Shown here piece by piece: positions 1-55,559 of a stretch of DNA of 64,000 bases. Location of the stretch: positions 50,780,001 to 50,844,000 of the forward strand of contig NC_087436.1 of assembly GCF_036321535.1 (NCBI RefSeq), written 5' to 3'. The notes beneath the pieces are model-generated. The model did no database searches. It saw only the letters and a list, made by a program, of their open reading frames with translations, and had not been told where the DNA came from. Both the position numbers and the translations under genes were made by a program. Source of the DNA: Camelus dromedarius (taxonomy: Eukaryota). How positions within the stretch are numbered: the first letter of the stretch is position 1; every line of letters begins with the position of its first letter.

Positions 1-514
1 TCAGTTTATTTATTCAAACATTTTTAAGGGATAAACGAAGCTTTTTTTAAAAGAGTATTTTTATTTTGGTGCTTGGCATTATGTTATACTTCCCCTTTGT
101 TTATAAGGAACCATGTTTTAACTGCCTTGCCTTACCCACAATGTTAAGAGGAAATGCAACAAACTGGAAATAAAAGCAAAACTAGAGAAAAAAATTGGTA
201 TCTGTAAATTAATAACAAATGGTAAAACTATTTAAAAATAATCTTCGATAATACTTTGTGGTGCTGAAAACAAGCAGTATATAGAATTGCCTAATAGAAA
301 ATTCCTAGAGACTTTCTAAGGTATAATTTTCTTAGGTATTAACAAATCTGTTCAAACTAATTTACTTTGATAACTTAGTACTACTCATTTTATGCCTAGC
401 ATAGCAACGATCTGCCTGATATTTGACTTCTAGCCTCCAACTCTAAAATATCCTATACAAGGCTTTAAAAACAGTTGTTCTAAATGAAGGGTGTTTTTTT
501 GTTTTTGTTTTTGT

Positions 515-2234: not shown

Positions 2235-2670
2235 CACAGATAGGTTAAAAGTAAAAGAATGGACAGAGATTTTATTATGCTAATACTAATCAAAAGAAAA
2301 CTACAGTTGCTATATTCAGGCAAAACAGACTTCAGAACAAGGAAAATTATCAGGGATAGAAAGGGGCATTACATAACGACAAAGAGGTCAATTCGCCGAA
2401 AAGATGTAACAACCTTTAATGTGTGTAGGTCTAACAACAGACCATTAAGGCAGCAAAGACAAAAATGGATAGAACTGCAAGGAGAAACAGGCAAATCCAC
2501 TATTTTAGCTGGAGGCTTAATCAGCCCTCTTTCAGTAATTGATAGATCTAGCAGACAGAAAATCAGTGAGGATATAGTTAAACTCTGTAGTACCGTCAAT
2601 CAACTGGATCTAATTGACATTTACAGAATACTTCACCCAAGAACAGCAGAATACACATTCTGCTCAAAAA
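2235..2670 (+). mobile_element. L1 ORF2 endonuclease-domain fragment
   Basis: ORF 2259-2699 carries IIRDRKGHYI, PLSVIDRSSRQKIS, LDLIDIYRILHP and AEYTF, L1 ORF2 endonuclease motifs. Confidence 0.9.
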
Positions 2671-2769
2671 AGGTAGGCATTTGTCAGTATAAGAAATAAA
2701 ACTTGTATGCAAAAACTTTAACGTAGTTAAAGTTAATAGATATACAATAAATTTTTTAAAATATTTACA

Positions 2770-13945: not shown

Positions 13946-15975
13946 GGGACTCTTTTTAATGTCAGAAATTTTACTGGATACTCCGTCCCCTCTCCATCAA
14001 AACACATAACGTAGTAGTTGTACATATGTTGAGTCTATATACTATACATAAGTAAGTAATATAATAAATATATTTATGTATTATATAATATATAGTAATG
14101 TCCAGGTTCCCTGCAATTACTGTTACTCAGGGATCTGTAACTCAAAGAAGGGAAACACTGTTAGAGGCAAAGGCAGTCTCAGGAAGTTAAAAGTATATTC
14201 AAAGGAACATGAGGGGCCCGGTATGATTAGAGATTTCACATATAAAGCAGAGATAAAATTCTGGTTTTTATTATCTACATAATAGGAAGCCACTGGAAAA
14301 CTTCTTTATTGAGATATCTTTTAATAAAAGCTATGTTTAACCTGATAGTGATATGCAAGACAGACAGAAGAGTAAAGACCCAGAAACCCACTAGGATATA
14401 CAGTAATGGACCAAATATGAGTTGGTGAGAGGCATCATAGTGTAATGAAACGAATGTTGACATTCGAATCACAGGACTTGTAATGACTCGTCCTGTCACC
14501 CTGGGCAAGTCATGTAACCTGTCTTACTCTGCTTCCTGTTTACATGCCAGTCACCTTGTAGGCCTTCAGCAGAATGATGAAATGTTAACGCCTGCTTAAC
14601 TCACAGAGTGGTCATACAAATATAATGATGACATATTTTTAAATGTATATTATGAAATGGAAGGTCTAAATGTGCATTTGAAGGCCTAAAGTAGAGACTG
14701 ATAAGAAAAGAGTGAAAGAAAAAAAATTACTCCAATATTGAATCTTGATGACTAGAAAATATATTCACCTAAATAGGTCAGTCAGAAGAGGGCCCAATTT
14801 TGGAAATTAGGACAAAGGGAGAAAAATAGTGATTTATTTAATGTTAATTGTAGAAATGTTCAGCAGATGGTTCTCTATTACATTTAATAGTTTCATATAT
14901 TAGGTATTTTTCATCTGATATCATTTCATTCAGTCTCCTTCATCAGATTTTAAGTTCCTAGAAAGAAGTTATCTCCTTTGGAATTAGTATTCCCTCCTCA
15001 TTTTTAACTTAAAAAAGTTTGTACCTATTGATTAAGTTGATAAAGTTTTACCTATTTTGTCCCATTTATTGGTAAAGGGATTATATAGAGCATTGACTGG
15101 TTTAAGGATTATTTGGTCCCTCCAACTTAATACCAAACTGTTATTCTTTATGTGCATCACTCTAAATAGTTGTCCCTACTAGGACCTTACTATAATCCAG
15201 GCAAACATTTCCTCTATTTGAATTTTATGAGAGACATAAAAAATGTCTTATTGAAAGCCGTATGCATATGTTTAGTTTTTTATATTTTAAATTTATATGC
15301 CTTTCATTTAGATCCTGAAATTTAAGATGGTTTCTGTTCCTTTTGAAATCTTTAGTTTCTCCTAGTACTTTTAAAAAATAAACTGTAATGGACCTCAACC
15401 ACAGCAGTCACTTCATCCTTTGTACTAAGAATCTGTCCTCTGCAGTGTGATTGTCTCTAGACTGCTATACTGTGTTACCAAGTCTGTAACTTTAAATTCC
15501 AGATAACATCCAGCATCTCTGCTGAATTTGGACTTCCTCTTGTATCACTGTTTACTCCTTTTCATTTTAGTCTAATTTCCCCTATTCCTACCTGAATTGA
15601 AACTTGGTTATATAGAGCTGTTTGCCTTTCTTATTTTTTTGCCCACTACGACTTTCTGTATTTAACATCCTTTCTAGCTCTACTCCCCCCCCAAAAAAAA
15701 TTTATGTATTTTAAAATTTGAGATCACAGAAATAATGTGTTAGCATCCTCCCTTATCCAGTAGTTAGGCTCTGGCATTCTCAACCTTAGGGAACTTGGAA
15801 GTAAGAAAAAACTGAGCAGCAAGAAAAACAGATGTTGTAAGCTTTATTCTGCAGCAAAAATATTGATGTTTTTGAGGAATTAAATGTTTCATAAAGGTGA
15901 ATTCTCCATGTGACTGAAGCTTCCATTATTCATCACAGACATTAAGTCAGTATAGTTTGAAGGGCTCTGTCTTTA

Positions 15976-16386
15976 CTGGTGTACTAACAACTAGGTCCTC
16001 CCTCACACCCACCTCCAAAAAAAAGCTCTGATTGTGATGTCTGCAAATTTCTCTGGGGTAAATACTCCCACTGTGACCCATTTCAAGCTACCACAAGACA
16101 TCACTGAACACAAGAGTTGGAAAGAGGGGTATACCATCAAATTATAATACTTCCACCATGTAGACACCATAGACATAACCATAAAAACATGGATAATAAA
16201 AAAATATTGTAAAATGACTAGAAAATTAGTTTTGAGTATTTATCTTTCAGTCTCATATATTGGATTTTACTGCCAGTTTATGTAATTTCTGATAATGGCT
16301 ATGTTTAACAGTCAGCCTGCAAAATACCTTAAAATTTTTAAATTGGTACTCAGAAGGCAGCGTAAGCCAGCTCTGGTGTACTACTG
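15976..16386 (-). mobile_element. MER63-like hAT-Blackjack element
   Basis: GTAAATACTCCCAC, ATTTCAAGCTACCA, terminal CCAGCTCTGGTGTACTACTG. Confidence 0.75.
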
Positions 16387-16644
16387 CGTACACTCTCAGT
16401 TTTAGACGTAACTTAGGGACTAACCAATATGGGTTGAGGTGGTTCTGCTAGCTAATAGTGAAAAACACACTTAATACTCAGATTTATATAGTCAGCCCTT
16501 AAATTCCACCGTCTCATAAAGTCATTCAAGCCTTTTTCATACTCCCCCATGCATATTTTATCTTGTTATGACTTTGTTACTTTTTAAAATCCTTTAAGGC
16601 TGCTAAACATGTTTAATCTGTGTTGCCTGTAAATAAATACTGAC

Positions 16645-17535
16645 AAAAGGGACCCAACAAGCAATGAGTGAAAAAATATAGACAGACATTTCTTCAAAGA
16701 AGGTATGTGGATGGCAAAGCAGTACATGGAAGCAGCACATGAAACGATGCTGAATATCATTAGTCACTAGGGAAATGCAAATTAAAATGACAACGAGATA
16801 CCACACATACCTATTAGAATGGCTAAGACTGCGAAGGCTAATCCTAACAAGTCATGAGGAACTGGAACACTCATACACAGCTGGCAGGAATGTAAAAAGG
16901 TATAGCCACCTGGGAGAAGAGTTTGGCAGTGTCTTAAAAGCTAAACATATGCCTGCTATATGATCCAGCCATTCCACTTCTGGCTATTTACTCAAGAGAA
17001 ATGAAAGCACGTGTCCACACAAACACTTGTACAAGAATGTTCACAGCAGCTGTATTTGTAATAGACAACAAGTGGAAACAATCCAAATGTCCACTGACAG
17101 GTGAATGGATAAAGACATTGTGGCATGTCCATCAATTGAACTACTACTCAGCAATTAAACAAAAATAATGAATTATTGAGAGACACAACATAGATAAATC
17201 TCAAGACAATAATGCTGAGTGAAAAAAAGCCAGACAAGAAAATAGGACATACTATATGATTCTATTTAAACAAAATTCTAGAAAATACAAACTAATCTAT
17301 AGTGGCAGAAAACAGATGAGTGGTTTCCTGTGGATAAGGGGAGACGGGGATAGGAAGAACAAGAGGAAGAGTATACAAAGGAGCACAAAGACACTTGTGG
17401 AGATGGATTCGTTCATTATCTTGATTTTGGTGACAGTTTCACGGGTGTATACATATGTCAGCTCATCAAATTGTGAATTTTATGCACAATTTACTGTATG
17501 TCAATTATATTTCAAGAAAGCTGTTGAAAAAACAT
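16645..17535 (+). mobile_element. L1MB/MC 3' end
   Basis: GGGAAATGCAAATTAAAATGACAACGAGATACCAC, CAATCCAAATGTCCACTGACAGGTGAATGGATAAA, A-rich end. Confidence 0.88.
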
Positions 17536-19177
17536 AAATCTATTGTGGTATGACCAGTAGAGATGAGGAAGTGGCAACTGCCTTGCTCTGGACAACTCAT
17601 TCCCATCTTTCAGGGTACAACTGTATAGGTTCTTTGGGCAGCTGTAAGCACATTGCTGGCTTGTACTGAGATGTTGGCCAGTTGAAATTCTGTTGTCTCT
17701 ATCACATGCCTGTCGTGAGGCCAGATTCTCTGAGTGCCTATCTTCATTTATCCCTAATATATTTCACATTATTTGTTTTACATGTGATTATTATTCTTAT
17801 AATGAGGCTTCAGTATTAATATTCTTTAGACCTTTGGTTTTTCAAACTGTGTTTAATAAACACTGGAGATACCCAAAGAACCATCTGAGGTATCCTGAGT
17901 AGAAGTGGGGATTGGAGATCGAAGGAGAGGAGAGCAATAAAGAATCTGAGTGGGCAAGGCTTCAGCTTCCAACCCAAGCAGCTTCTTAGTTTTACAGACT
18001 TAAGGACTCCTGGGGAAAAAAGTATGAAAATCATGTAAATTTTATCCACAAGCTAAGTCAGAGCTTGATGCATAGTAGGTGTTCAATAAATATCTCCTAG
18101 TGAATCTGGATTAAATGTAAAATGCCTCTCATTTCTTTCTACACTCCCTCTCTTTCTCATTTGGCATATAAATTTCTGTTCTGTCATTTCAGTTTCTTGA
18201 GACGTGAACTTCATTTCTGAGAAGAGCTGTTCATTTCACACACACAAAAAGTACCAATATAATATACTGAACTATATACCATTGTTTAAAAGCACTGATT
18301 TTTTATGCACATAGTCACACATCGATTAGGAATGCAAGCCTCTATTAACAAATCCAGTGGGTATTAAACACACACGTGAGAGTTCTAAAAGCTGAGGGAA
18401 AACAATTATACAACCATATGGAAAATTGCCCCTACAAATTCACGATCTATCTTAGGCCCTTAGTAAGGCTTTTTTTTCTTTTCTTTCATTAGTTCTTCAG
18501 TTTCCATCTTTAGTGATTCCACTGTTACCTCCTTTTCACATGCCCAACTCATTGTCATCGCACTGCCCTCCTTCCTATTTTACCAGGTTGAGAACACTGA
18601 ATATTAATGGTCAACCTCCTGCCTCCTCCCACCTAAAATTTATCTTCATTTTTTACCCATTCTAATTTTCTTCCCTCTAGTCCCCTATAGGTTTACCAAC
18701 CTTGTACAGAATCAAATACTTTCTGACCAACAGCCACATCTTGTGAAGGAACTGGTTCCACCCATTAATCCCTCTCCTGTGTATCTCATCACCCTCATGA
18801 CTCTTGCTTGACCATAAACATCCTCAAATCTCTCATTCTAAAAAAAATCCTCCTTTGATCCTAAGTTCTCTAAGCTAATACTCTATCTTCCAGTTTTTTA
18901 AATCATAGCCAAGCTCTCCATTTTTTTCTCTTTCGATTCACTCCCCAACCTACTTTAACTGTGTCAACACCACTTCACTCAGTGACAGATGACTCAGTGA
19001 CAAAATTTAGTTCACAAATTTCTAATCCCTAGTATATTTGAACTTTCTATACCATTTGACACTGGATATTTTGAGTATGTGGTCAAATATTTTTTCAGAT
19101 GAATAAAGTGGGAATCAATGGAGGAAAGGGAAGAAGTTACTCCCCAATTCACGAGTACCCAATGAATTATAAATAGC

Positions 19178-19684
19178 TGTAGTCCCCAGAATAATGTCCT
19201 CCCCTTCTCCCTGCTGCCACCAAAGATGTCCACACCTAGTCCGTGGAACCTGTGAATATGTTATGTTACACAGCAAGGAGGAATTAAATTTGTAGATGGA
19301 GTTCAGGTTGCTAATCATTTGGCCTTCAAGTGGGCAGATTATCCCTGTGGGCCCAATATAATCACAAAGGTCGTTACATAAGTGAGAGGAGGCAGATGAG
19401 TGTGACAGAGTGCTATGATGTGACAAAGACTCAACCAGCCATTGCTGGCTTTGAAGATGGAAGAGGGTCATAAGCCAAGGAATGCTGGTGGCCTCTGGAA
19501 GCTGGAAAGGGCAAGAAAACAGATTCTGCCCTAGAACTTCCAGAAAGGAGTGAACCTGGCTTATACCTTGATTTTAGACCAGTGAGATACATTTCAGAAT
19601 TCTGACCTCCAAATCTGTAAGGTAACTGTGTTGTTTTAAACCACTAAGTTTGTACTGATTTGTTACATCAAAGAAATTATTACA
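19178..19684 (+). mobile_element. MLT1D-like MaLR solo LTR
   Basis: TG...CA ends; AAAGATGTCCAC, GAATATGTTATGTTACA, AGCCAAGGAATGC, GGAAAGGGCAAGAAAACAGATTCT. Confidence 0.85.
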
Positions 19685-22600
19685 ATAATCATTTCTCATT
19701 TTCCGTTAAATAGAGTTGAATCTTGTGACTTTTTCTCTTGGGTCTAGTTTGCTGAGTAGGGGTTTGGGGTGGTGGTAGAAAGGAAACCAGGATCAAGTGA
19801 GAGTTCGTTACCTTCTTCTCACTTTAGCCACTCTCTTGCTGACCTTCATGCCGTCAGCAACTTGCTTATAATCATCTGTAAATACTAAAGTCTTATTATT
19901 AGAAATAAAAACCCTTATGAAAGCTTAACAGGATACATATTTACTTTAGGGACAAAAATATAGGAAAGAAAAAAACCCTGTGAGATTATACTTTCAATAG
20001 GGAACAGGATAGATAGGAAGAAAGTTTGAGGTTCCTGTAAGAAAGCAATTGATACTGGCGGTGGAGAGGAATGTGAGTGAACCAATCTGGTGGTGAAAAA
20101 GAAAAGGGGATCCCAGAGCCAACTCAACCATAAGTGACACCCGAGGTTAAATGTACAGATTCCTTGGCCACATATCTCCAACTTCCTGAAAATTTCATCC
20201 AACCACTAAATATGATTTTTACCCTCAGTCCAATTCTTCCTGTTCTGTTTGAGTATCTGTCCTAAGCCACTGGAAGTAACTAACTCCTGCTGCTTGAAGC
20301 AAGGAGAATTTCTGCTAACTAAACAGAAAGGTAGGAGGCTTCATTCTGATGGGCAGAGGATAGATCATTCTTGCGATACCAATCCGAAACTCTATGGAGC
20401 ATTTTCTCATAAGAACATAGCACATATAAAGGCTGGATTTAGAGAACAGTCCTTTGTGGACTGACCTGGAGACATTAACTACTTGTCTGTAAGAAATTAT
20501 GGTCTGAATTCCACAACAGGAATGAACTTTAAAATGCATCTAAGCCCTTTCTTTCTTCCTTTACCTTCACTTTAGAATCTAGTTTATTAGTTTATCGGTC
20601 CTACCTGCCTAGCATTTCTTGACTCTAGAGAGTCACAAGGTCAGACTCAACAAATTCAACTGTAGGTATGTTACAAACGGGCTTTTATAACCTCTATATC
20701 AGTGTATTTCAAACTAGAATCTTTGATTCTTTATCAGATATTTTTCCTCATGTTGTGATTTATTTCATTAATCTATAATAATTAATATAAATATAGTCTA
20801 GCTCACCTTGGTTCCCACTTACAGCTAAGCATTGACACATGATTCCTGAGCCTGCGTTGCATTTAGGTTATGATCCTGTCGGAACCATGTAATAGTACTT
20901 TGTCTTAGGCAAATGAGCACAGAATAGATAACAATTTGCAGTGAAAGAAAGAACAAAGGTCTCCTAAAGGTTCTAGCAGAGAAAACTGGTCGTTCTATAG
21001 GGAATACAGCAGTTAGTATAGACATGCCAAATTTAAAAGAAACTAAAACTGTAGCAGTCAGCTCTACAACTGTTTCAAGAGGCAACTGAATTTGTAAACA
21101 AATAAAAATCAAGTAGCATATGGATACTAATTTTACTAGTTTACATTTTTCCACATTTAATACATGAACTTTAGTTTCATAGTTCTTTCAGAGTTAAGAG
21201 CATAAGGAGTTCATACCAAGTATTATGTTTATTTTTGTTACAATGTTACCATAATTCAGTCATGTTTTACATGTATATGTGTGTGTATATATACATATGA
21301 TTTTATTGTTATATTCTAATAAGAAATAACTAGAGGGGCGCCTCAAAAATTTTTTATCTTAAGGTCAGTTCGACCCAGTAAATACACAAAATTTACCTCC
21401 TGTACTATGGGTGCAATTACTGCGACTATTTTAGGTCTTCCTTACAATCACAACTCATTCAGATTATTTCAGTAGCATCCCAAGTGGTCTCTTTACCTCT
21501 AATCTCCATCCTAACACATACTTTCATTACATCGTCCACATTGCTATCATAGTTATCTTTTTGTGATTAAAATCTGATCGAGACTTTTTATGCTAAATTC
21601 AATTCCCTTATCTCATACCCTTCAGAATAAAATCTGAACTTAACATGGCATGTTAAGGCCCTCAAGATATCCAGCTTTTTCTTTCAATGTTTTGTCTCTT
21701 AATATCTTCTCTCATTCATTCCCCACCACCCCTGCACACACACACACACACACACACTACTGCAGTCAAAGTACTTTCCAAAGAACCTTAAAAACTTACT
21801 TTGCAAAGTAAGTTCAAGTTCTCTGAGATTGCATATTGTTCCCTCTGCCTAGGAGCATTCCTACCTTTTCTTTTTCCTGGTATGCCTCCTTTTTCATTTG
21901 CTTAGACATAACTCCCTTCTGTAGAGAAACTCTCTAACCACCTCTAGATGACTTGAGTACATTAATATTACCCTGTGCATGCATTTATGTCATTGAACAC
22001 ACTCTACGGTGATTGTCTGATCCTCAGTGGTCTCCGTAGGTAAAAAAATTTTCCTAAAGGTAGCATCTGGCTTTCATCTATGTATCTTCAGCATCTAGCT
22101 CAGTGCCTAGCACATAATAGACATCCAATATTAAAAAAAAAAAAAAAAAGAAAAAAAAAGAAGATGGAAGTGATTCTATCAACAGAGCTCTATTACATTA
22201 ACCTTCAGCCTAAACCTGAAGACCATACTTAGCCAAGTCAGACCTAAGTATCATTGACTGTCACACTGGGTAAGTCTCTTGGTCTTACCCTAACTTACAT
22301 CAAAAGCAGTCACATATTATAAACCCACATTTTAAAAAACTGTTTGTAAACAAGGAAGTTTTTTGGAAGGCAGAATGCATTATATATGAAGTATTAACAG
22401 TAACTAGATTTTAAGCTAGCAAGTACAAAACAGGCAATTAAGTTATGAAAACTGAACCAGCATAATGGTGGTAGCCTGAATTCTGTTCTCTAAGGTAGGA
22501 GACCTTGTAGTGCTTGAATAAAGAAGAAGAAAAAAAAAGGTTTCTTCTTCAGTTCCACTTCGCCCAAGGACAGTTTACCTTTGACATTTTCCTTCCCACT

Positions 22601-23501
22601 TGTTTCTGCACCTAGTCTCCAATGTCCTTACCTTGCTTGTTGTCCCGAATTATAGCCCTATCCAAGCCAGGGGCAGGCATTTAGCCCTACCCTTAAAGTG
22701 GTCCAGAGTAATCATCCTCTTCTCTCCATCAGTGCAGAATAGAAAGAAAGAAAACAAGGAAAAGCTAAATTCACACAAGTCTGTGAATATCTAATCATAT
22801 CTTAATCTTTTTGTTTAAATTGTTGGAGAATTGAATTTCAAGCATTGTAGCACCCAGGGTTCTTTTTTGTATAGGTCTTTTGGTAAGATGGGGAATCTGT
22901 ATCATATCGTTCTTATTAGGTATATATGATAAAGTCCATTCACATCACTTAGTCATTAACTTTGAGATTTACTATGCTTTAATGATGGGATCTCTGCAAC
23001 AGTTGAACACTTCTTCGACACCAAACAAGCCAAATTCTTCAAGATTTTTTTAGATGTAGGGGAGTGTTTCTTAGTAAGTTTCATTGTTTCTTATTGTGCC
23101 ATATGTTAAATCACTGCTTCCTTGCAATGAAAAAATCAACAAGTACTAGATAGTATGTATTAAAAACTAAAAGCCTCACATAAATGTTTCCATTAAGCCA
23201 CTCAGACACTATATAGATCTGACCCTTTAAAACCACTATGTTCAACATTTGGATAATTAATCCTAATTTAAATTCTTTAAAAGCAGAATTTAAAATTTAT
23301 CAGCACTATCTTACTACAGAATTCTCACATATATTTAAAACAATCAAATTCAATATGGGTACAACAACGGTCATTTCTGGTCTCAATCTCTGTTTACTTT
23401 AGATTTTTTAGAATATTATTGAAACAAAGATTATAATTATTGTTGGGAAGTAATTTTAATTTGAATTCCTTATTTTTACTTAAGTACTTTTAAAGTTAAT
23501 T

Positions 23502-23889
23502 TGTATATCAGAACCCAAAAATTGGAAGCCACTCCAGTGGCCCAGCCCAAGCCACAAACCTAAATCTAAGTCAGCCTGCACTTATATGAAACACTTGTCA
23601 AAGAAACCTAACATATAGCAATCACGATCCTGCAGTTCAGCTTAGCTAGCTCACCTGACCCTAGAAAACAGGACTTGCTGGCCTTATAAGGAAATCCCCA
23701 ACCTCCTGGGCAGTCATGCCGTTAAGGCAATACAGCTTCTAACACTGTATAAAACTCACTCTTGACCAAAATCCCTCAGGAAGGGAAAGAGTGTTGCAGT
23801 GCTTATGAGACACTGTAGAAACATCCATAGATTGTTTTCCCTTGAATAAAGAACATCAAACTCATTACTGAGTTGTTTTAGTTTTGTCA
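23502..23889 (+). mobile_element. Solo LTR, ERV1-type
   Basis: TG...CA termini flanked by 4-bp AATT TSD (23498-23501, 23890-23893); TATAAAA and AATAAA in U3-R order. Confidence 0.75.
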
Positions 23890-24354
23890 AATTCTTTATC
23901 TAGATAATCTACCCCCAATTTTCAAACTACCTGATTTTATTTGAAATTGTAAAGAAATGTTTCTATATTTACAGTATATCAAAATCAGATGTATTCTATT
24001 TCTGGTCATAATTATGAACTTTAATTTTCAATAAAATACAATGCTATTTAAAATTAATTTTAATTACTATGTTTCATAAAGCAAGTAATATTGATGAAAA
24101 TGCCTCCAAATTTAAGACTAATTGACAGCAAATGCTTGTTATTATATTAAAACTGAATCTAAATTACATTGTTTGTACTGAAGGAAAAATCTCCTGCTGG
24201 CTGTAAATATTTTACATTTTACAAAGATGCTGTATCTCATGAGGATGCCATATCTCATTTATCATCAGAGACCTGAAAAGTACTATGAGATATTGAAAAT
24301 ATTTGGTAATAAGCTTTCAGGCTGATTTCACATTTTGGTTCTAATTCATTATTT

Positions 24355-24815
24355 TAAAAAAACTACATTAAGGTAATTCACATACCATAAAATTCACTCT
24401 TTTAAAGTGTATAGTTCAGTGGGTTTTAGTATATTCACAGAGTTGTGTAACCATCACCATTATCTCACTTTAGAACGTTTTATCACCCTCCCCCCCAAAA
24501 ACACCCATACTCATTAGCAGTCATTCCCCTTCCCCCTCCTCCTAATTTCTGACAACCAAGTAATCTACTAGTCATTTCATATGAATGGAATTATACATGG
24601 CCTTTAAGTGCCTGGCTTTTTTCATCTAGATACATGTTGTAGCAGGATCAGTATTTTGGTTTTGCTTATTAACTAGTACTATTCCATCATATGGATACAC
24701 CACATTTTATTTATCCATTATCACCTGATGGACATTTGGGTTGTTTCCACTTTTGACTATTATGAATACTACTACTCTGAACATTCATGCATACAATTTT
24801 TCTGTGGAAAATGCT
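24355..24815 (-). mobile_element. L1MB-like 3' end
   Basis: TAATTCACATACCATAAAATTCACTCTTTTAAAGTGTA, GATGGACATTTGGGTTGTTTCCAC. Confidence 0.85.
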
Positions 24816-26433
24816 CAAATTTATTTTTAGCTTCAACATTTTTGCAAGATTCATTATGTGCCAAAACCCATCTTAATTTAAGGTCAAAATGATGCTCTTA
24901 GCATGAAATAAAGTACCATTTCCTAATTTGTACCTTTATTAATTTCTGAATGTAAAATGTTGCTGCAGTATATAAAACCATAATTTTTTTTAGCACATTG
25001 CACACTGCAATATAAAAAAAGATTATTTTCCTTTCTTTTTTCAGATGGAGACATTTCTATCATATAATTCAAATAGGTAAAATGAATGAAAGTCAGCTTT
25101 AACTTTATTTGCAACTAAAATGCATTCCTTATAATACTAGATACGTGAATAGCGTTTTAAAGTTTGAGCTAACCCTAAACTGCCTCCTAAAACATCAAAA
25201 TACTTCTAGACCATGGTCCTTTTAATTTTAACCTTAGCAAAACTGAGTAGAAATGTAAGTTTGCTAGTGTAAATACAAACAAAGCAGAAAGCGTAATCAA
25301 CCAATAAATTCACTTCAGTGCCAAAAAAAGGAATTTGGAATTACATAATCACTTCCCTTCATTAAACATGAATAATCTAGAACTTCATGTATCAGGATTT
25401 ATTTAAACACAGTCATTTCCTCCATAATCCTGATAATGGTAAATATAAAAATATAGCAGCACCATTACAAAACAAAGATTTAATTTCATTTATGAAAGTA
25501 TGTTTGTAGGGTAGAGAAAGGTATGAGTGGATTTCTTCATCTTCTAAGCAAAACTCTATTACAACAACAATTTCTGTAAAAGAAACCATTTTCCAGCCCC
25601 AACTGGTAGCCCACTTATTTTAAAGGTGGCATTGGATATAAACAATACCACAGCAAAGGAAGAATTTAGAAAATTCCTTTCAGACAGTGGGTGGAAATAT
25701 TTTGAGGCAGCGAATATTTATTTGTTACACTAGTGGGCAAATTAATGTTGGCTAATAGTCAAAGGGTAAAAAAATAATCAAACACCTTAGTAGTTACAAG
25801 TGAAAACACCTTAGTAGTTAAGAGTGAGAGCTTTTCAACTACATTTCAATTTAAAAAGAATGAGATCGTTGAGGTCAGACTGCCTAGGGTAAAATCCTGG
25901 CTGTACTACTTAGTAACTGTATGACCTTGAATGTTTCATCTGTATAATGGGGATCTGATGATATAAAGAATTAAAGGGCCCAGCACATAGTACTTCAAAT
26001 AATAATTATTAACACTTGTTATCAAGAATTTTAAATATACAGTATTTTTATTTCTTTCATCTTTAGTTATTATTTTCACTGCAATTCTTCTACATCTTAT
26101 TTGTAAAGACATGTAATAAGAGTGATACAGTAAAACCTAAGTTATCCAGAATGCTTGCGAAATGAATCATTCTGGATAGGTAAATTTTCCATAGGGTACT
26201 ACCTTTATAGGTATCCAAAAAAAAAAAAAAAAAAAATCCAAGAAATCAACAAATGGGGTAAATTTATTTCTTAAATCTATTACACATTTCCATGCCTTCT
26301 TTACAAGAGTATACTGGTGGTAAACGTCTTCTTAATAAATCACTGTTATTATGAGTATCAATTATGTTTCTGTGTTAAAATTTCACAATCCCTTCAGAGC
26401 TTACCAACAGGAATAGGTCTACCTGATTCCACC

Positions 26434-26902
26434 CAAGATTTTTTAACATTAAGTCCATGGATAGAATTCAGGGTGTGTGTGAACTTTAATGGGAAAAAAA
26501 AATTACATCTTTATTTTTACTGATCTCTAACGGAAAATTAGCATTTCCTTCAATTATGAATGTAAAGCCACAAAGAGCTACACCTATGTCTGTATCTCCA
26601 ATAGGAATCACAGATCTCTATATCACATTACAACTGTTGCAAACTCTGGAAATTTTACATTCATCATTATTTCAAAAATTTCGTCTTTATTAGACCCACC
26701 ACTAGATTTTACTGTGTTAATAAAGCTCATATATTCCTATATTAAAATTTTGTTTTTAGTATTTTGAGACTCTATTTCAAAGTTTTTTCCTTTGCAATGC
26801 TATGCATTTTATTGTATACGTTTAAAACACTATCCTGAGAAGAGTCCATGGTTTAATCAGACTGCTAACACGGTTTGTGGTACAAAAAAATAAAGAACTC
26901 TG
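26434..26902 (+). mobile_element. Charlie4a-like hAT element
   Basis: GTCCATGGATAGAATTCAGGG, AAATTACATCTTTATTTTTACT, terminal AAAAAAATAAAGAACTCTG. Confidence 0.8.
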
Positions 26903-27234
26903 ACCTCAAATTTGTCCCAGTCTGCTGTGCTCATTAATTCAAAGCATTAACATGGTCCATTATACTTTCATGCTGAAGCTTGTTTATATTAGGGTAGTAC
27001 AAATTAGCTTCTCTGGGATTTTTCTCTGTGGACCTTCTGGATATTGTAAGTTCCCTTTGAACTGTTTTGTACCATTCTTGTACCTTGGCTCCTGAAAGAG
27101 GAAAACAAATAGAGCGAGAAATAAGTCAAATAAAATTAGATTCAGATAGCATTCAAAGTAGAAATATAAAACATCCTACTTTCCTATTTTCTAAACTAAA
27201 AGACAATAAATACTTCATTCAATAAATACTCTGA

Positions 27235-27920
27235 CATTAACTGCATGTGTTCAAATTCTACTTCTGCTATTTATTATTTCTGTGACCTTGGGAGAGTAAC
27301 TTAGTACCTCTGTGCATCAGTTTCTTTATTTGTAAAAGGACGTTAATAGGCACTGTACCTAGTACATGATAAATGTTTCATAAATATTATTAGTCTTACA
27401 GCTTTGTTTCACACCATGGCCAGTTAATGTTTGACTAGTTCCTTTAATAACATATTTATACAGCATTGTAGTCTACAGTGGCCTTTCACATACATTGTGA
27501 CATTTGAACCACATAACCCTGTGAAAAAGGACAGCTATTATTATGCCTACGTTAGTGTTGAAGAAACTAACCACATTAATTCACACAAATGGGAGCCAAT
27601 GGAGCAAGAACTCAAACCTGGATTTCTTTCTCTACTCCAACTGCCTAATCCTACGTTTCTACTATATTAGACTGGTTAAAAAAGAAAACAAAGGAAAGCT
27701 TATTCAGGGAGGAGTGAGGGGGCAGAGGGGTCCAGTAGGCCACGAAGTGAGCACTTTGGTGCTTTGCTACTCACAGGGTGGTCTTCCGAGTAATCTGTAT
27801 CACCTGGGACCTTTTTAGAGTTACAGACTCTCAGGCTCCACCCCTGGCCTACTAAATCAAATTCAGCGTTTTGAACAAATCCCTAGGTAATTTTAAGATA
27901 CTAGCTTGAGAGGCACTGTT
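27235..27920. mobile_element. Two MIRs (~27235-27390, ~27440-27650) and a MER5A-like element (~27775-27920)
   Basis: TGTGACCTTGGGAGAGTAACTTAGTACCTCTGTGCATCAGTTTC; CTCAGGCTCCACCCCTGGCCTACTAAATCAAA. Confidence 0.7.
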
Positions 27921-28061
27921 TCACTAATTGCTCTAGTGACGCTATTATGGTCACTCGAACGAAACATATTTATCACATACTAAGAAGTTTTTATTAGAAA
28001 ATACTTTCTTGCAGCAGGAAATAGCTTCCTGCTTCCCTTTTTAAAAAGCAAAGTATGTTTA

Positions 28062-28190
28062 GAGGGAGGAGATAGCTCAATGGTAGAGTCTGTGCCAAGG
28101 ATGCACAAGTTCCTGGGTTCAATACCCAGTGCCTCTATTTAAAAAATAAGTAAGTAAATAAGCCTAGTTACCTCTTCCCCTAAAAAAAAT
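28062..28190 (+). mobile_element. tRNA-derived SINE (vic-1-like, camelid)
   Basis: ATAGCTCAATGGTAGAG A box, CCTGGGTTCAATACCC B box, AAGCCTAGTTACCTCTTCCCC tail. Confidence 0.85.
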
Positions 28191-29079
28191 GTTAAGCACA
28201 TTTAAAAACAAATTTATATTTCCAAGTAATTCTTAAAGATATCACTCCCTTAAGTGAGGTCACTAAGGAATGTTAGGAAACTTCAAGCAAATCAGTGCTT
28301 ACCTTTTAATGTCTTACTACCCTTTGCCTGAAGGACATACTAGAAAGCAAAATCACCTTCTTCATTCTTTTCATCGGCAGATTAAAACAGGCAACCCTGT
28401 CCTTATATTTATTCCCCTGGATATTAGTTTTTCTGATCCAAAACTCTGATTTCTTGAGTAAGTTTTGCAACTTTCTGACTCTAAGGACTGAAACAGCAAC
28501 AGAAAGAAAAAGCCTATTCCCACACCTAACCCTGGCGGATGGTGACCGTTGACTACAGAGGCAAGTAAACAGCCTGCCCCAATCTCCCTTTCCTCCACCC
28601 TAATCAATTCACAGTTGAGCTCGGTTTCTAGTCGGCTCTAATTCTGGGGCCTGGTCAGTGGTGGCGCTCTTCCCAGGGTAGACCCTCTAAGCCCCTAGGG
28701 TCAGAATAGCACTAGATTTCCGCACGTGGGAGCGCTGATCAGCGGTCCGCCCGGTACTATTTAAAATGACCGTTCCCATTTAGAGGGGCACCTCCTCCCA
28801 CTGATTAACCAGCCCAGACCCGCAGACGAGTCAATATCATTCACCTGCTCCACCGAAAACTTCAAACTCCCGGGTCAACCTGGACTAAAGGTATCTAGTA
28901 ATTAACCCGTGGCCCTCCCACCACACATTCCTGATTGGACGCGTGAGAGAAGGATGCGTCGGCGCGCGCTCTCACCAGTCCGGGAATTCCATTTCCTCTC
29001 CCTCCCACCAGCATAAGCGTTCGGGGGCGGTGCTTCTCCGGCGAAGGCCCGCCCCAGCTCGAGCCGGTGCTCCATTGCG

Positions 29080-29196
29080 TCTCGCGAGAATTTGTGGGTT
29101 TGGGGGCGGGCCCCCATCAGGAAGAGTGCACAAAACTGCCCTTAAGTCATTGCAGCGCTACAGCTCTGATTAGCCAGCCACGAGGTTCTCGCGAGA
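29080..29196. promoter_or_regulatory. Two perfect TCTCGCGAGA palindromes (BANP / CGCG element) at 29080-29089 and 29187-29196
   Basis: Exact 10-bp palindrome seen twice; a known motif of CpG-island housekeeping promoters. Confidence 0.85.
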
Positions 29197-30609
29197 TCCG
29201 CCTCCTCAATACCAAGTGAGGAAATTGGGGGACGCTGTCGGGAGGGGCTTGGGGCTCGACCGCGCAGCTGCCGCTTCCTCCCATGGTCTCCTTCCGGTTC
29301 TCGATGCTTCTCTGACTCTGAGGGTTTCCGCCGCTCGTCTACCCTTCCCCCAGCCCATGACCCGCCTCCGGCCCCCGCCCTCCCAGTCCAACCTCCGGTC
29401 TGTTTAGTAAGAAGGTGCTGTTCCGAAAAGAAGGAAAAGGGGGTTGGCACAGATTCGCTCGGCCCTGGACGTGGGGAGCAAACCGTCCCCCTTCACCCTT
29501 AGACTCGTCCTGTGCTCGCGACGGCGGCGTTGGCGGACTGATACGCGGCGGTGAAGAGGCAGGAGGAGGGGGGAGGGGCGGAGCGTGGCAGCTGGCAGTA
29601 GTTCCGTCAGAGCGGACATCTTGTGGCTGTGTCGTGCGCGTGAGCCCCGTAGGGCCGGGGAGGCACCAGCTGCCGCGCGGGGAGGAGGCCGAGGCCGCAG
29701 CTTGAGGGAGGCCCCGGCCCCTCTGTGAGCGTGGGTGTGGACGGCTAGGGGAAGGGAAGGGAGGCCGGCCCGCTGGCCGGCCGGGTAAGAGGGGAAATAC
29801 AGGCCCTGGGTGGCTTGAGTGACCAGCCTGTTGGGTGGGGTAGGGTGGGAAGGCTAGAGATGCTGGGGCCTCTCCTGCTTAAAGGGGAGGGGGAATGGGC
29901 GCGTCCTCGCGCCTAAGCCGGAGCTTCAGGGGCCGCACGGGCGCGTGGTGGCGGTGGCTAGGCGGGCGCGCGCGGGAGCGCGCTGGAAGGCGGAGTGTAC
30001 GGTGGCGTCAGGGGCGACTCAGAATAGCTCTAGCTGCGGGGACAGCAGGACACACCGAGCCTCTCTTCTGTTTCTTTCCCCTACCCGGCCGCACCTTCGA
30101 GCAAAAACCGAAAGAACCGCGGCGTCAGTCCGGAGTCGCCTGTTTTCCCCTCCCCCCTTGCCTTTCTTTGCCCTAGTGACGCCGGCATAGCGCCGACTAG
30201 GCCCTGGCTCCTCCTCTGCTGGGCTCCGGACCCTGCCCCGCACCCACCCCTTTCTCCTACGCCTCTTCCTTTCGAGAGGCCGGGAAGTCAAACTTGTAGC
30301 CACCCCTCCGCTCTTCCCGTCACCCTCGCCCCCTCTTCGGGCCGAAGCACGGCATAGAGGCTGTCGGTGGGTTTGCCATCCCACCCACCCGGGCTCGCGA
30401 CCGTTTTTGAGGGACTTGGCTTCTTCGGGGTCTCTGCGGGGCCTGTGCGAGTGCTGACCTGCTCCGTTTTTGCAAAAGGCGCCTGTGTCTGGCAGAGCCG
30501 GTGTGAAACGAAGAGACAATCCTTCCCAGCCGCCAGGATAATCAAGAGTTTTGGCCGGACCTTTGAGCACACACCGAGATAGTGAGGAGCCAGACGAAAA
30601 GCACAGACT

Positions 30610-55559
<24,950 letters not shown>

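Follow-up and report, generated by a model that had tools for sequence, protein, structure and literature searches.

A putative UBE2D3-AS1 exon at the upstream edge of the dromedary UBE2D3 CpG island, beside a chance chain of splice-bounded blocks

The CISD2-UBE2D3 interval

The window considered here is a 64,000-nucleotide stretch of the Camelus dromedarius genome (NC_087436.1, positions 50,780,001 to 50,844,000 of the forward strand). In this window, the exons of UBE2D3 are carried by the plus strand; the start codon and the first eight codons of the gene can be read at 30611-30634 (+), where a GT donor follows. A first-pass annotation of the same DNA had named CISD2 as the neighbour on the other side. 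This gene is indeed found further off, outside the window: its exon 1 lies some 5.3 kb ahead of the first window position and is read from the minus strand. In window coordinates, CISD2 exons 1-3 (-) are at about -5292, -13500 and -15064, and a CpG island extends from -5999 to -5000. The interval between CISD2 and the UBE2D3 CpG island, about 34 kb long, contains the region studied here.

The UBE2D3 CpG island (28600-31000) would be common to UBE2D3 (+) and to a putative antisense transcript (-). Between 28601 and 30800, bins of 200 nt have a GC content of 0.50-0.72 and a CpG observed/expected ratio of 0.67-0.95, and no TATAAA occurs between 28700 and 30900. The island contains two exact copies of the palindromic TCTCGCGAGA ('CGCG') element, at 29080-29089 and 29187-29196. 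These are the only two matches in the window, whereas none of 100 dinucleotide-preserving shuffles had any match. This motif is reported to drive transcription in both directions from TATA-less CpG-island promoters (PMC6192621). The dromedary island resembles such promoters, with two exact copies 107 bp apart, which lie just upstream, in the minus-strand sense, of the putative antisense exon and are candidate elements of a bidirectional promoter.

Similarity to the human antisense RNA UBE2D3-AS1

In human, UBE2D3-AS1 (ENSG00000246560) is antisense to UBE2D3 and borders the CpG island of that gene on its upstream side, and the putative dromedary exon occupies the same place. A qPCR primer pair for the human RNA is given in Table 1 of PMC8394133. 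The forward primer has its best match in the window at 29023-29004 (-), with 4 mismatches out of 20, and the reverse primer at 28871-28890 (+), with 5 out of 20; the next best match has 6 mismatches in both cases. These matches point toward each other across 153 bp, have the expected strand and lie directly upstream of the donor CAG|GTGAAT (8.9 bits). This donor, proposed by the first-pass annotation as the first of a chain, is real, 28845 being the final exon base. Primer matches and donor together delimit the minimum extent of a putative UBE2D3-AS1 exon 1, at 28845-29023 (-). Orthology to human UBE2D3-AS1 is likely, as judged from two 20-nt primers with 31 of 40 nt identical. With the TCTCGCGAGA elements beside them, the primer matches suggest that the real feature of this region is likely to be exon 1 of the known divergent lncRNA. 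Its position, at the edge of the UBE2D3 CpG island and on the opposite strand, is that of a divergent lncRNA, although some 1.6 kb separate it from the start codon of UBE2D3, a wider spacing than in a minimal divergent pair. The candidate lncRNA shows no coding potential, as assessed by stop counts, Pfam and library search (see below).

Human UBE2D3-AS1 is a short RNA with a poly(A) tail, and its nanopore direct-RNA reads average 521 nt (PMC9980576, Table 4). The comparison of this RNA with the window covers 40 nt of primer sequence. In the dromedary, no AATAAA or ATTAAA hexamer is found on the minus strand from 29400 down to 28414. The first one is at 28413, so that it is preceded by the donor at 28845, and eleven such hexamers occur from 28413 to 26490. 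When words were sampled from the whole 9.3-kb stretch, a fraction of 0.75-0.91 of them was present in four RNA-labelled sequencing runs, all from one study; this measure carries neither strand nor junctions. Of this stretch, only about one quarter is occupied by the blocks described in the next section.

Splice-bounded blocks of the minus strand

The first-pass annotation had read the region 20223-28900 as the remains of a multi-exon coding gene on the minus strand, head-to-head with UBE2D3. Its seven proposed exons (blocks 1 to 7, numbered from 28487 downwards) are all directly preceded by AG and directly followed by GT on that strand, as claimed, and the lengths of 279 and 264 nt given for two of them are indeed multiples of three. 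The quoted peptides are all found in the sequence, but they represent just the open stretches of the blocks, and block 4, described as fully open, is open in two of the three frames.

Splice sites were scored in bits with a splice matrix. Their quality across the seven blocks is mixed, with acceptor/donor values of 6.3/11.4, 14.1/7.8, 8.7/1.3, -2.9/3.0, 5.8/11.5, -0.3/12.3 and 4.5/4.2 bits for blocks 1 to 7. Splice-like sites of similar quality turn up on either strand at intervals of a few hundred bases: at a threshold of 6 bits, donors number 199 (-) and 168 (+) in the window, and acceptors 275 (-) and 300 (+). The strongest splice-like donor of the region (23655, 13.4 bits) lies within an interspersed repeat of about 400 bp (23485-23889) that has at least 35 copies in the genome (70-76% identity) and also carries acceptors at 23774 (8.5 bits) and 23660 (9.9 bits). 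A modest internal-exon filter (acceptor of at least 6 bits, donor of at least 8 bits, length of 50-300 nt) is passed by one of the seven blocks, 28487-28303. The density of filter-passing candidate exons is 1.67 per kb here, compared with 0.44-2.2 per kb in five control regions, both strands being considered.

Block 1 (28303-28487, -), a candidate lncRNA exon 2 by its sequence features, has a stronger alternative acceptor at 28531 (9.3 bits). It is single copy in the genome, contains the AATAAA at 28413 and holds a 97-aa ORF. Block 2 (26405-27091, -) has the best acceptor of the region and 15-19 stops in each frame. Its positions 203-664 (about 26428-26889) resemble 39 other places in the genome at 66-82% identity, among 40 that were scored out of 258 candidates. 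Hence, about 460 of its 687 nt, or about two thirds, are interspersed repeat, and assignment of blocks to repeats had been named by the first-pass annotation as an observation that would refute the gene. With AATAAA or ATTAAA hexamers at 26857, 26813, 26691 and 26515, block 2 is a possible terminal lncRNA exon ending inside an old repeat, and not a coding exon.

Block 3 (25233-25573, -) is single copy, has 6-9 stops per frame and holds a 68-aa ORF without homologue. Block 4 (24934-25056, -) has a GC content of 25% and block 7 (20223-20486, -) has 2-5 stops per frame; neither has a Pfam match. Block 5 (22632-23120, -) is single copy, with 8-12 stops per frame. These four are chance blocks. Block 6 (20807-21085, -) lies within a 120-aa ORF (20825-21187), which is a chance ORF; ORFs of 146-156 aa are present elsewhere in the non-coding parts of the window. 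Most likely, none of blocks 3 to 7 (25573 to 20223) is an exon of anything. Within the reach of the genome search, which skips very common words and may miss old repeats, five to six of the seven blocks have a single copy, and they are not explained as repeats.

Recognizable repeats also occur between the blocks. A tRNA-derived SINE is found between blocks 1 and 2, at 28064-28189 (+), with a match to the Rfam tRNA family at 28068-28137 (+, 34.8 bits), further copies in the window and genome copies at 90% identity. An interspersed repeat at 27762-27903, with many genome copies at 71-84% identity, overlaps a mir-544-like Rfam match whose 36.9 bits are under the gathering score of 66.5. Another one, at 27242-27361, has genome copies at 77-83% identity; we take it to be MIR-like.

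Coding potential

From block 1 to block 7, the best frames contain 1, 15, 6, 0, 8, 2 and 2 stops, which amounts to 34 stops in 789 codons. As a control, 500 random sets of AG..GT-bounded blocks, with lengths matched to within 15%, were drawn for each of six region/strand combinations. Mean stop counts were 30.3-41.5 (standard deviations 4.2-5.2), so that no residual reading frame, in the sense of a stop count below background, was found over the seven blocks. The share of random sets with 34 stops or fewer was 0.81, 0.55, 0.20, 0.23, 0.37 and 0.07 in the six combinations. The lowest share, 0.07, comes from the control drawn on the same region and the same strand, as would be expected of blocks chosen by eye for openness. 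Since the frames are closed, the matching of junction phases from block to block, to which the first-pass annotation had given weight, is without meaning. Considering this background stop density and how common splice-like sites are, nothing in the chain of blocks goes beyond chance.

Searches for protein homologues lead to the same picture. The Pfam cut-off was reached by none of 14 ORFs, and none of 55 minus-strand ORFs of at least 35 aa (one further ORF was left out) had a Pfam match at E≤0.01. As a control, two of two real UBE2D3 exons, coding for 26 and 35 aa, matched UQ_con at 2.6e-8 and 2.6e-13; this positive control covers the Pfam search. In a library of 5.8 billion proteins, nothing was found for the 68-aa ORF or for a 63-aa ORF. 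In this library, the 120-aa ORF had as its sole match a 98%-identical ORF on a contig of 1840 bases, which we read as this very locus in a close relative. The 97-aa ORF gave three matches among 1.84 billion representatives (E 7e-6 to 1.6e-4); these were rejected as spurious, since all three align in several short pieces with internally repetitive proteins. In the dromedary genome itself, paralogues were found for neither of the two ORFs tested, of 120 and 97 aa.

Possible origins of the antisense transcript and of the blocks

Considering these data, the region 20223-28900 is probably non-coding, without any fossil coding gene, and its promoter end would be the orthologue of UBE2D3-AS1, with exon 1. 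The interval between CISD2 and UBE2D3 would consist of single-copy sequence mixed with old interspersed repeats, where AG..GT-bounded stretches with short open frames would have arisen by chance. The upstream edge of the CpG island, with its two TCTCGCGAGA elements, probably fires both ways. The minus-strand product would be the UBE2D3-AS1 orthologue, whose exon 1 would span at least 29023-28871 and end at the 28845 donor. According to the U1-PAS model, a 5′ splice site ahead of a poly(A) signal protects a transcript from early termination. The antisense transcript would thus escape early termination and be spliced because its donor precedes any poly(A) hexamer. The next exons might most likely be 28487/28531-28303, followed by an exon running from 27091 to a poly(A) signal in the old repeat (26857 or 26813). 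The transcription start, the strand and all junctions of this antisense RNA are putative, as read from the DNA. The earlier suggestion of a divergent lncRNA akin to UBE2D3-AS1 finds support at the promoter-proximal exon, with its primer matches and donor, and not at the other blocks.

Other readings may be envisaged. It is unlikely, though worth considering first, that the dromedary makes no stable RNA from the minus strand and that this DNA is purely intronic or intergenic. The signal in the RNA-labelled runs would then come from plus-strand pre-mRNA, made by long UBE2D3 isoforms starting near CISD2, or from short and unstable upstream antisense transcripts. The human antisense RNA is classed as 'Embedded' in UBE2D3 (PMC8394133), a label that implies UBE2D3 transcripts spanning it. 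The spread of the runs over a stretch of which the blocks are a minor part would also be consistent with such transcripts. However, the primer-matching segment and the donor are kept at the expected place, the donor comes ahead of the first poly(A) hexamer and two CGCG elements are present, all of which argue against this reading.

Somewhat less probable still would be a long multi-exon non-coding RNA using most or all of the seven blocks over about 8.6 kb, which might continue toward CISD2, 34 kb off on the same strand, as an upstream alternative transcript of that gene. In its favour, the sequence offers a likely antisense start with a first donor, the minus strand has several strong splice-like sites, CISD2 lies downstream on the same strand and the runs contain most of the stretch, as judged by sampled words. 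In contrast, the density of candidate exons is within that of the controls, the acceptor or the donor scores below 5 bits in four of the seven blocks, the eleven poly(A) hexamers stand between 28413 and 26490, and the human direct-RNA reads are short in comparison.

Finally, the unitary pseudogene proposed by the first-pass annotation, a coding gene lost in eutherians with the seven blocks as its exon skeleton, is highly improbable: AG/GT edges at all blocks, five single-copy blocks, two lengths divisible by three and strong sites (the 27091 acceptor; donors of 11.4-12.3 bits at 28303, 22632 and 20807) speak for it, but stop density equals background, three acceptors or donors are below 2 bits, two blocks, with 687 and 489 nt, exceed the usual length of an internal coding exon, block 2 is two-thirds repeat, and no real homologue came out of Pfam, of the 5.8-billion library (three ORFs), of the 1.84 billion representatives (one) or of the animal's own genome (two). 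Decay over much more than 100 million years could have erased every detectable trace of a gene but the positions of its splice sites, and there is a very slight chance that the six single-copy blocks are the last skeleton of a gene between UBE2D3 and CISD2 that was dead before the eutherian radiation. If so, the promoter and first donor of the dead gene would survive as UBE2D3-AS1, a second case of the type of Xist, which was born from the dead coding gene Lnx3. Both cases would share a non-coding transcript where a coding gene is proposed to have died. However, Xist exons retain detectable similarity to the Lnx3 exons of other vertebrates, whereas no block here is similar to any protein searched.

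These results dispose of a false candidate for gene death coupled to lncRNA birth, and their importance is otherwise small. In AT-rich mammalian non-coding DNA, one should expect chains of AG..GT blocks that contain short open stretches. The first exon of UBE2D3-AS1, its donor and the CGCG promoter elements appear, from the sequence, to be retained in a distant eutherian, as one would expect if a divergent transcription unit had been conserved at this housekeeping promoter. The lncRNA UBE2D3-AS1 itself is already annotated in human, RP11-10L12.4 being presumably its older clone-based name.

Probable divergent transcription at the edge of the UBE2D3 CpG island

Sequence features and sites matched by human primers co-locate at the promoter end of the interval upstream of UBE2D3. 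The start codon exon of this gene is found at 30611-30634 (+), the CpG island extends over about 28600-31000, and further coding exons are located at about 43425 and 43573, and at 49595-49672 and 50818-50922 (+). On the minus strand, the first donor CAG|GTGAAT was confirmed, with 28845 as the last exon base. qPCR primers for the human antisense lncRNA UBE2D3-AS1 have been published (PMC8394133). In the window, the best match of the forward primer is at 29023-29004 (-), with 4 mismatches out of 20 (next best, 6), and that of the reverse primer at 28871-28890 (+), with 5 out of 20 (next best, 6). The two matches are convergent, 153 bp apart and directly upstream of the 28845 donor. The palindromic 'CGCG' promoter element TCTCGCGAGA occurs in two exact copies, at 29080-29089 and 29187-29196, 107 bp apart, whereas none of 100 shuffles contained a match. 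Both copies are situated some 1.4-1.5 kb from the UBE2D3 start codon, at the edge of the CpG island farthest upstream. In TATA-less CpG-island promoters, this motif is reported to induce bidirectional transcription (PMC6192621).

Neither AATAAA nor ATTAAA is present on the minus strand from 29400 down to 28414. The first poly(A) hexamer, at 28413, is thus reached only after the 28845 donor. According to the U1-PAS model, a 5′ splice site can rescue a transcript from early termination. In the mechanism that may be envisaged here, the edge of the CpG island would fire divergently and the minus-strand transcript would be saved from early termination by its own 5′ splice site. Splicing would then join its first exon to one or two others close by. 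The best candidates for these are 28531/28487-28303, followed by a stretch that starts at 27091 and ends with a poly(A) signal within an old repeat, at 26857 or 26813. The human UBE2D3-AS1 RNA is polyadenylated and short, with a mean of 521 nt in nanopore direct-RNA data (PMC9980576, Table 4).

The first-pass annotation had proposed a divergent lncRNA as a fallback for its seven minus-strand blocks. At the promoter end, where the human primers co-locate, this proposal stands, and a promoter-proximal exon of the already known divergent lncRNA is most likely real. As exons, the last five blocks (25573 to 20223) found no support. Of 24 sequencing runs screened with words sampled from the 9.3-kb stretch, 19 contain half of these words or more, including four labelled as RNA, all from a single study. 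The word shares in these four runs (0.75-0.91) are uninformative on strand or splicing and, as the blocks make up only about a quarter of the stretch, they mean that the RNA-labelled libraries also contain inter-block DNA.

Genomic context of the interval

CISD2 is located outside the window. In the 60 kb upstream in the same assembly, its three coding exons were found on the minus strand at window coordinates of about -5292, -13500 and -15064, and the gene has a separate CpG island from -5999 to -5000. CISD2 shares the strand of the putative antisense RNA, 34 kb beyond it, and the blocks therefore sit in an interval of about 34 kb between two CpG islands. A zf-CDGSH family search of the genome gave matches on two other contigs only and missed CISD2, because an intron splits its domain. 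In human, long UBE2D3 isoforms presumably begin beside CISD2, in which case the CISD2-UBE2D3 interval would be their intron. The class 'Embedded' given to UBE2D3-AS1 in Table 4 of PMC8394133 agrees with this view. At 29783-29791 (+), some 830 bp before the UBE2D3 start codon, the CpG island also contains a strong donor-like site, CGG|GTAAGA, which could mark the end of an alternative non-coding UBE2D3 first exon.

Splice sites of the blocks

The splice-like edges claimed for the blocks were recovered, with AG before and GT after all seven on the minus strand. Strength was scored with a splice-site matrix, on which all the bit scores and counts below depend. Acceptor and donor reach 6.3 and 11.4 bits for 28487-28303, 14.1 and 7.8 for 27091-26405, 8.7 and 1.3 for 25573-25233, -2.9 and 3.0 for 25056-24934, 5.8 and 11.5 for 23120-22632, -0.3 and 12.3 for 21085-20807, and 4.5 and 4.2 for 20486-20223. 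With the same matrix, the window contains 199 donors (-) and 168 (+) of at least 6 bits, and 275 acceptors (-) and 300 (+). A modest internal-exon filter was passed by only one of the seven blocks; filter-passing candidates occur at 1.67 per kb here, as compared with 0.44-2.2 per kb in five regions taken on both strands. An interspersed repeat of about 400 bp carries the region's strongest donor, which scores 13.4 bits at 23655.

Coding potential

The blocks had been read primarily as the exons of a fossil protein-coding gene, head-to-head with UBE2D3. With stops at chance level, no homologue and a largest block made mostly of repeat, it is highly improbable that such a gene is a real feature of the locus. 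All the quoted peptides do exist in the minus-strand sequence, but they are open stretches only, stops being found in the best frame of six of the seven blocks (1, 15, 6, 0, 8, 2 and 2 from 28487-28303 to 20486-20223, that is 34 in 789 codons). Block 27091-26405 contains 15-19 stops whichever frame is read. Since the frames are closed in this way, the phase match between blocks, put forward in favour of the gene, carries no information.

As controls, 500 random sets of AG..GT-bounded blocks, with lengths matched within 15%, were drawn from each of six region and strand combinations within the window. Mean best-frame stops were 30.3-41.5 (sd 4.2-5.2), against 34 in the seven blocks, and the share of sets with 34 stops or fewer was 0.81, 0.55, 0.20, 0.23, 0.37 and 0.07. 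The smallest share, 0.07, comes from the region and strand of the blocks themselves, as expected from blocks picked by eye for openness. Moreover, ORFs of 146-156 aa are present in other non-coding parts of the window, so that an ORF of 120 aa (20825-21187) is unremarkable.

No real homologue emerged from Pfam, from large protein libraries or from searches of the camel genome itself. The Pfam cut-off was reached by none of 14 ORFs and no Pfam match at E<=0.01 was obtained for any of 55 minus-strand stop-to-stop ORFs of at least 35 aa (56 were found, one being omitted), whereas both real UBE2D3 exons used as controls (26 and 35 aa) matched UQ_con, at 2.6e-8 and 2.6e-13. Pfam rows for DUF5305, FTO_CTD and MCEL_GT_NTPase, at 13-14 bits for cut-offs of 27-29, were rejected. 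In a library of 5.8 billion proteins, whose coverage of vertebrate proteomes, like that of the other large library, may be incomplete, the 63-aa and 68-aa ORFs had no match, and the sole match of the 120-aa ORF was a 98%-identical ORF on a contig of 1840 bases, presumed to represent this locus in a close relative. The 97-aa ORF (28306-28599) gave three matches among 1.84 billion representatives (E 7e-6 to 1.6e-4): two internally repetitive bacterial-type proteins and one tandem-repeat product. They were considered spurious, with alignments broken into 4-9 short stretches of internally repetitive proteins. When the 120-aa ORF and the 97-aa ORF were searched in six frames against the 2.3-Gb genome, the query locus alone was recovered. 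A coding ancestor of UBE2D3-AS1 is not mentioned in the article excerpts retrieved under this name, under its Ensembl identifier ENSG00000246560 or under RP11-10L12.4, which we take to be its older clone-based name.

Repeats and other elements

About two thirds of the largest block proposed as an exon, 27091-26405, is an interspersed repeat. Its query positions 203-664 (window about 26889-26428) are repeat-derived, with 39 other places in the genome at 66-82% identity among the 40 scored of 258 candidates. The remaining blocks are single copy in the genome at the sensitivity of the search. Between the blocks are found a tRNA-derived SINE (28064-28189), interspersed repeats at 27762-27903 and 27242-27361, the second of which may be MIR-like, and pieces at about 24000-24810 that we regard as L1-like. 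The repeat of about 400 bp at 23485-23889 has at least 35 genome copies at 70-76% identity. Its ends read TG...CA on the minus strand, a feature from which we assume that it may be a solo LTR. L1-like ORF fragments at 2244-2699 (+), 16754-17168 (+) and 24400-24810 (-) resemble one another within the window; none of the three ORFs matched Pfam.

Over 15000-32000, Rfam returned no lncRNA family; its only rows were SCARNA7 at E 0.78, a SINE resembling a tRNA and a mir-544-like match below threshold. The mir-544-like hairpin, at 27794-27891 (-), scores 36.9 bits for a gathering score of 66.5 and lies inside a multicopy interspersed repeat; in all likelihood, this hairpin is a transposon palindrome and not a miRNA gene. 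Finally, 21735-21757 is occupied by a (TG)n microsatellite and 22131-22162 by a long run rich in T; look-alikes of both occur elsewhere in the window.
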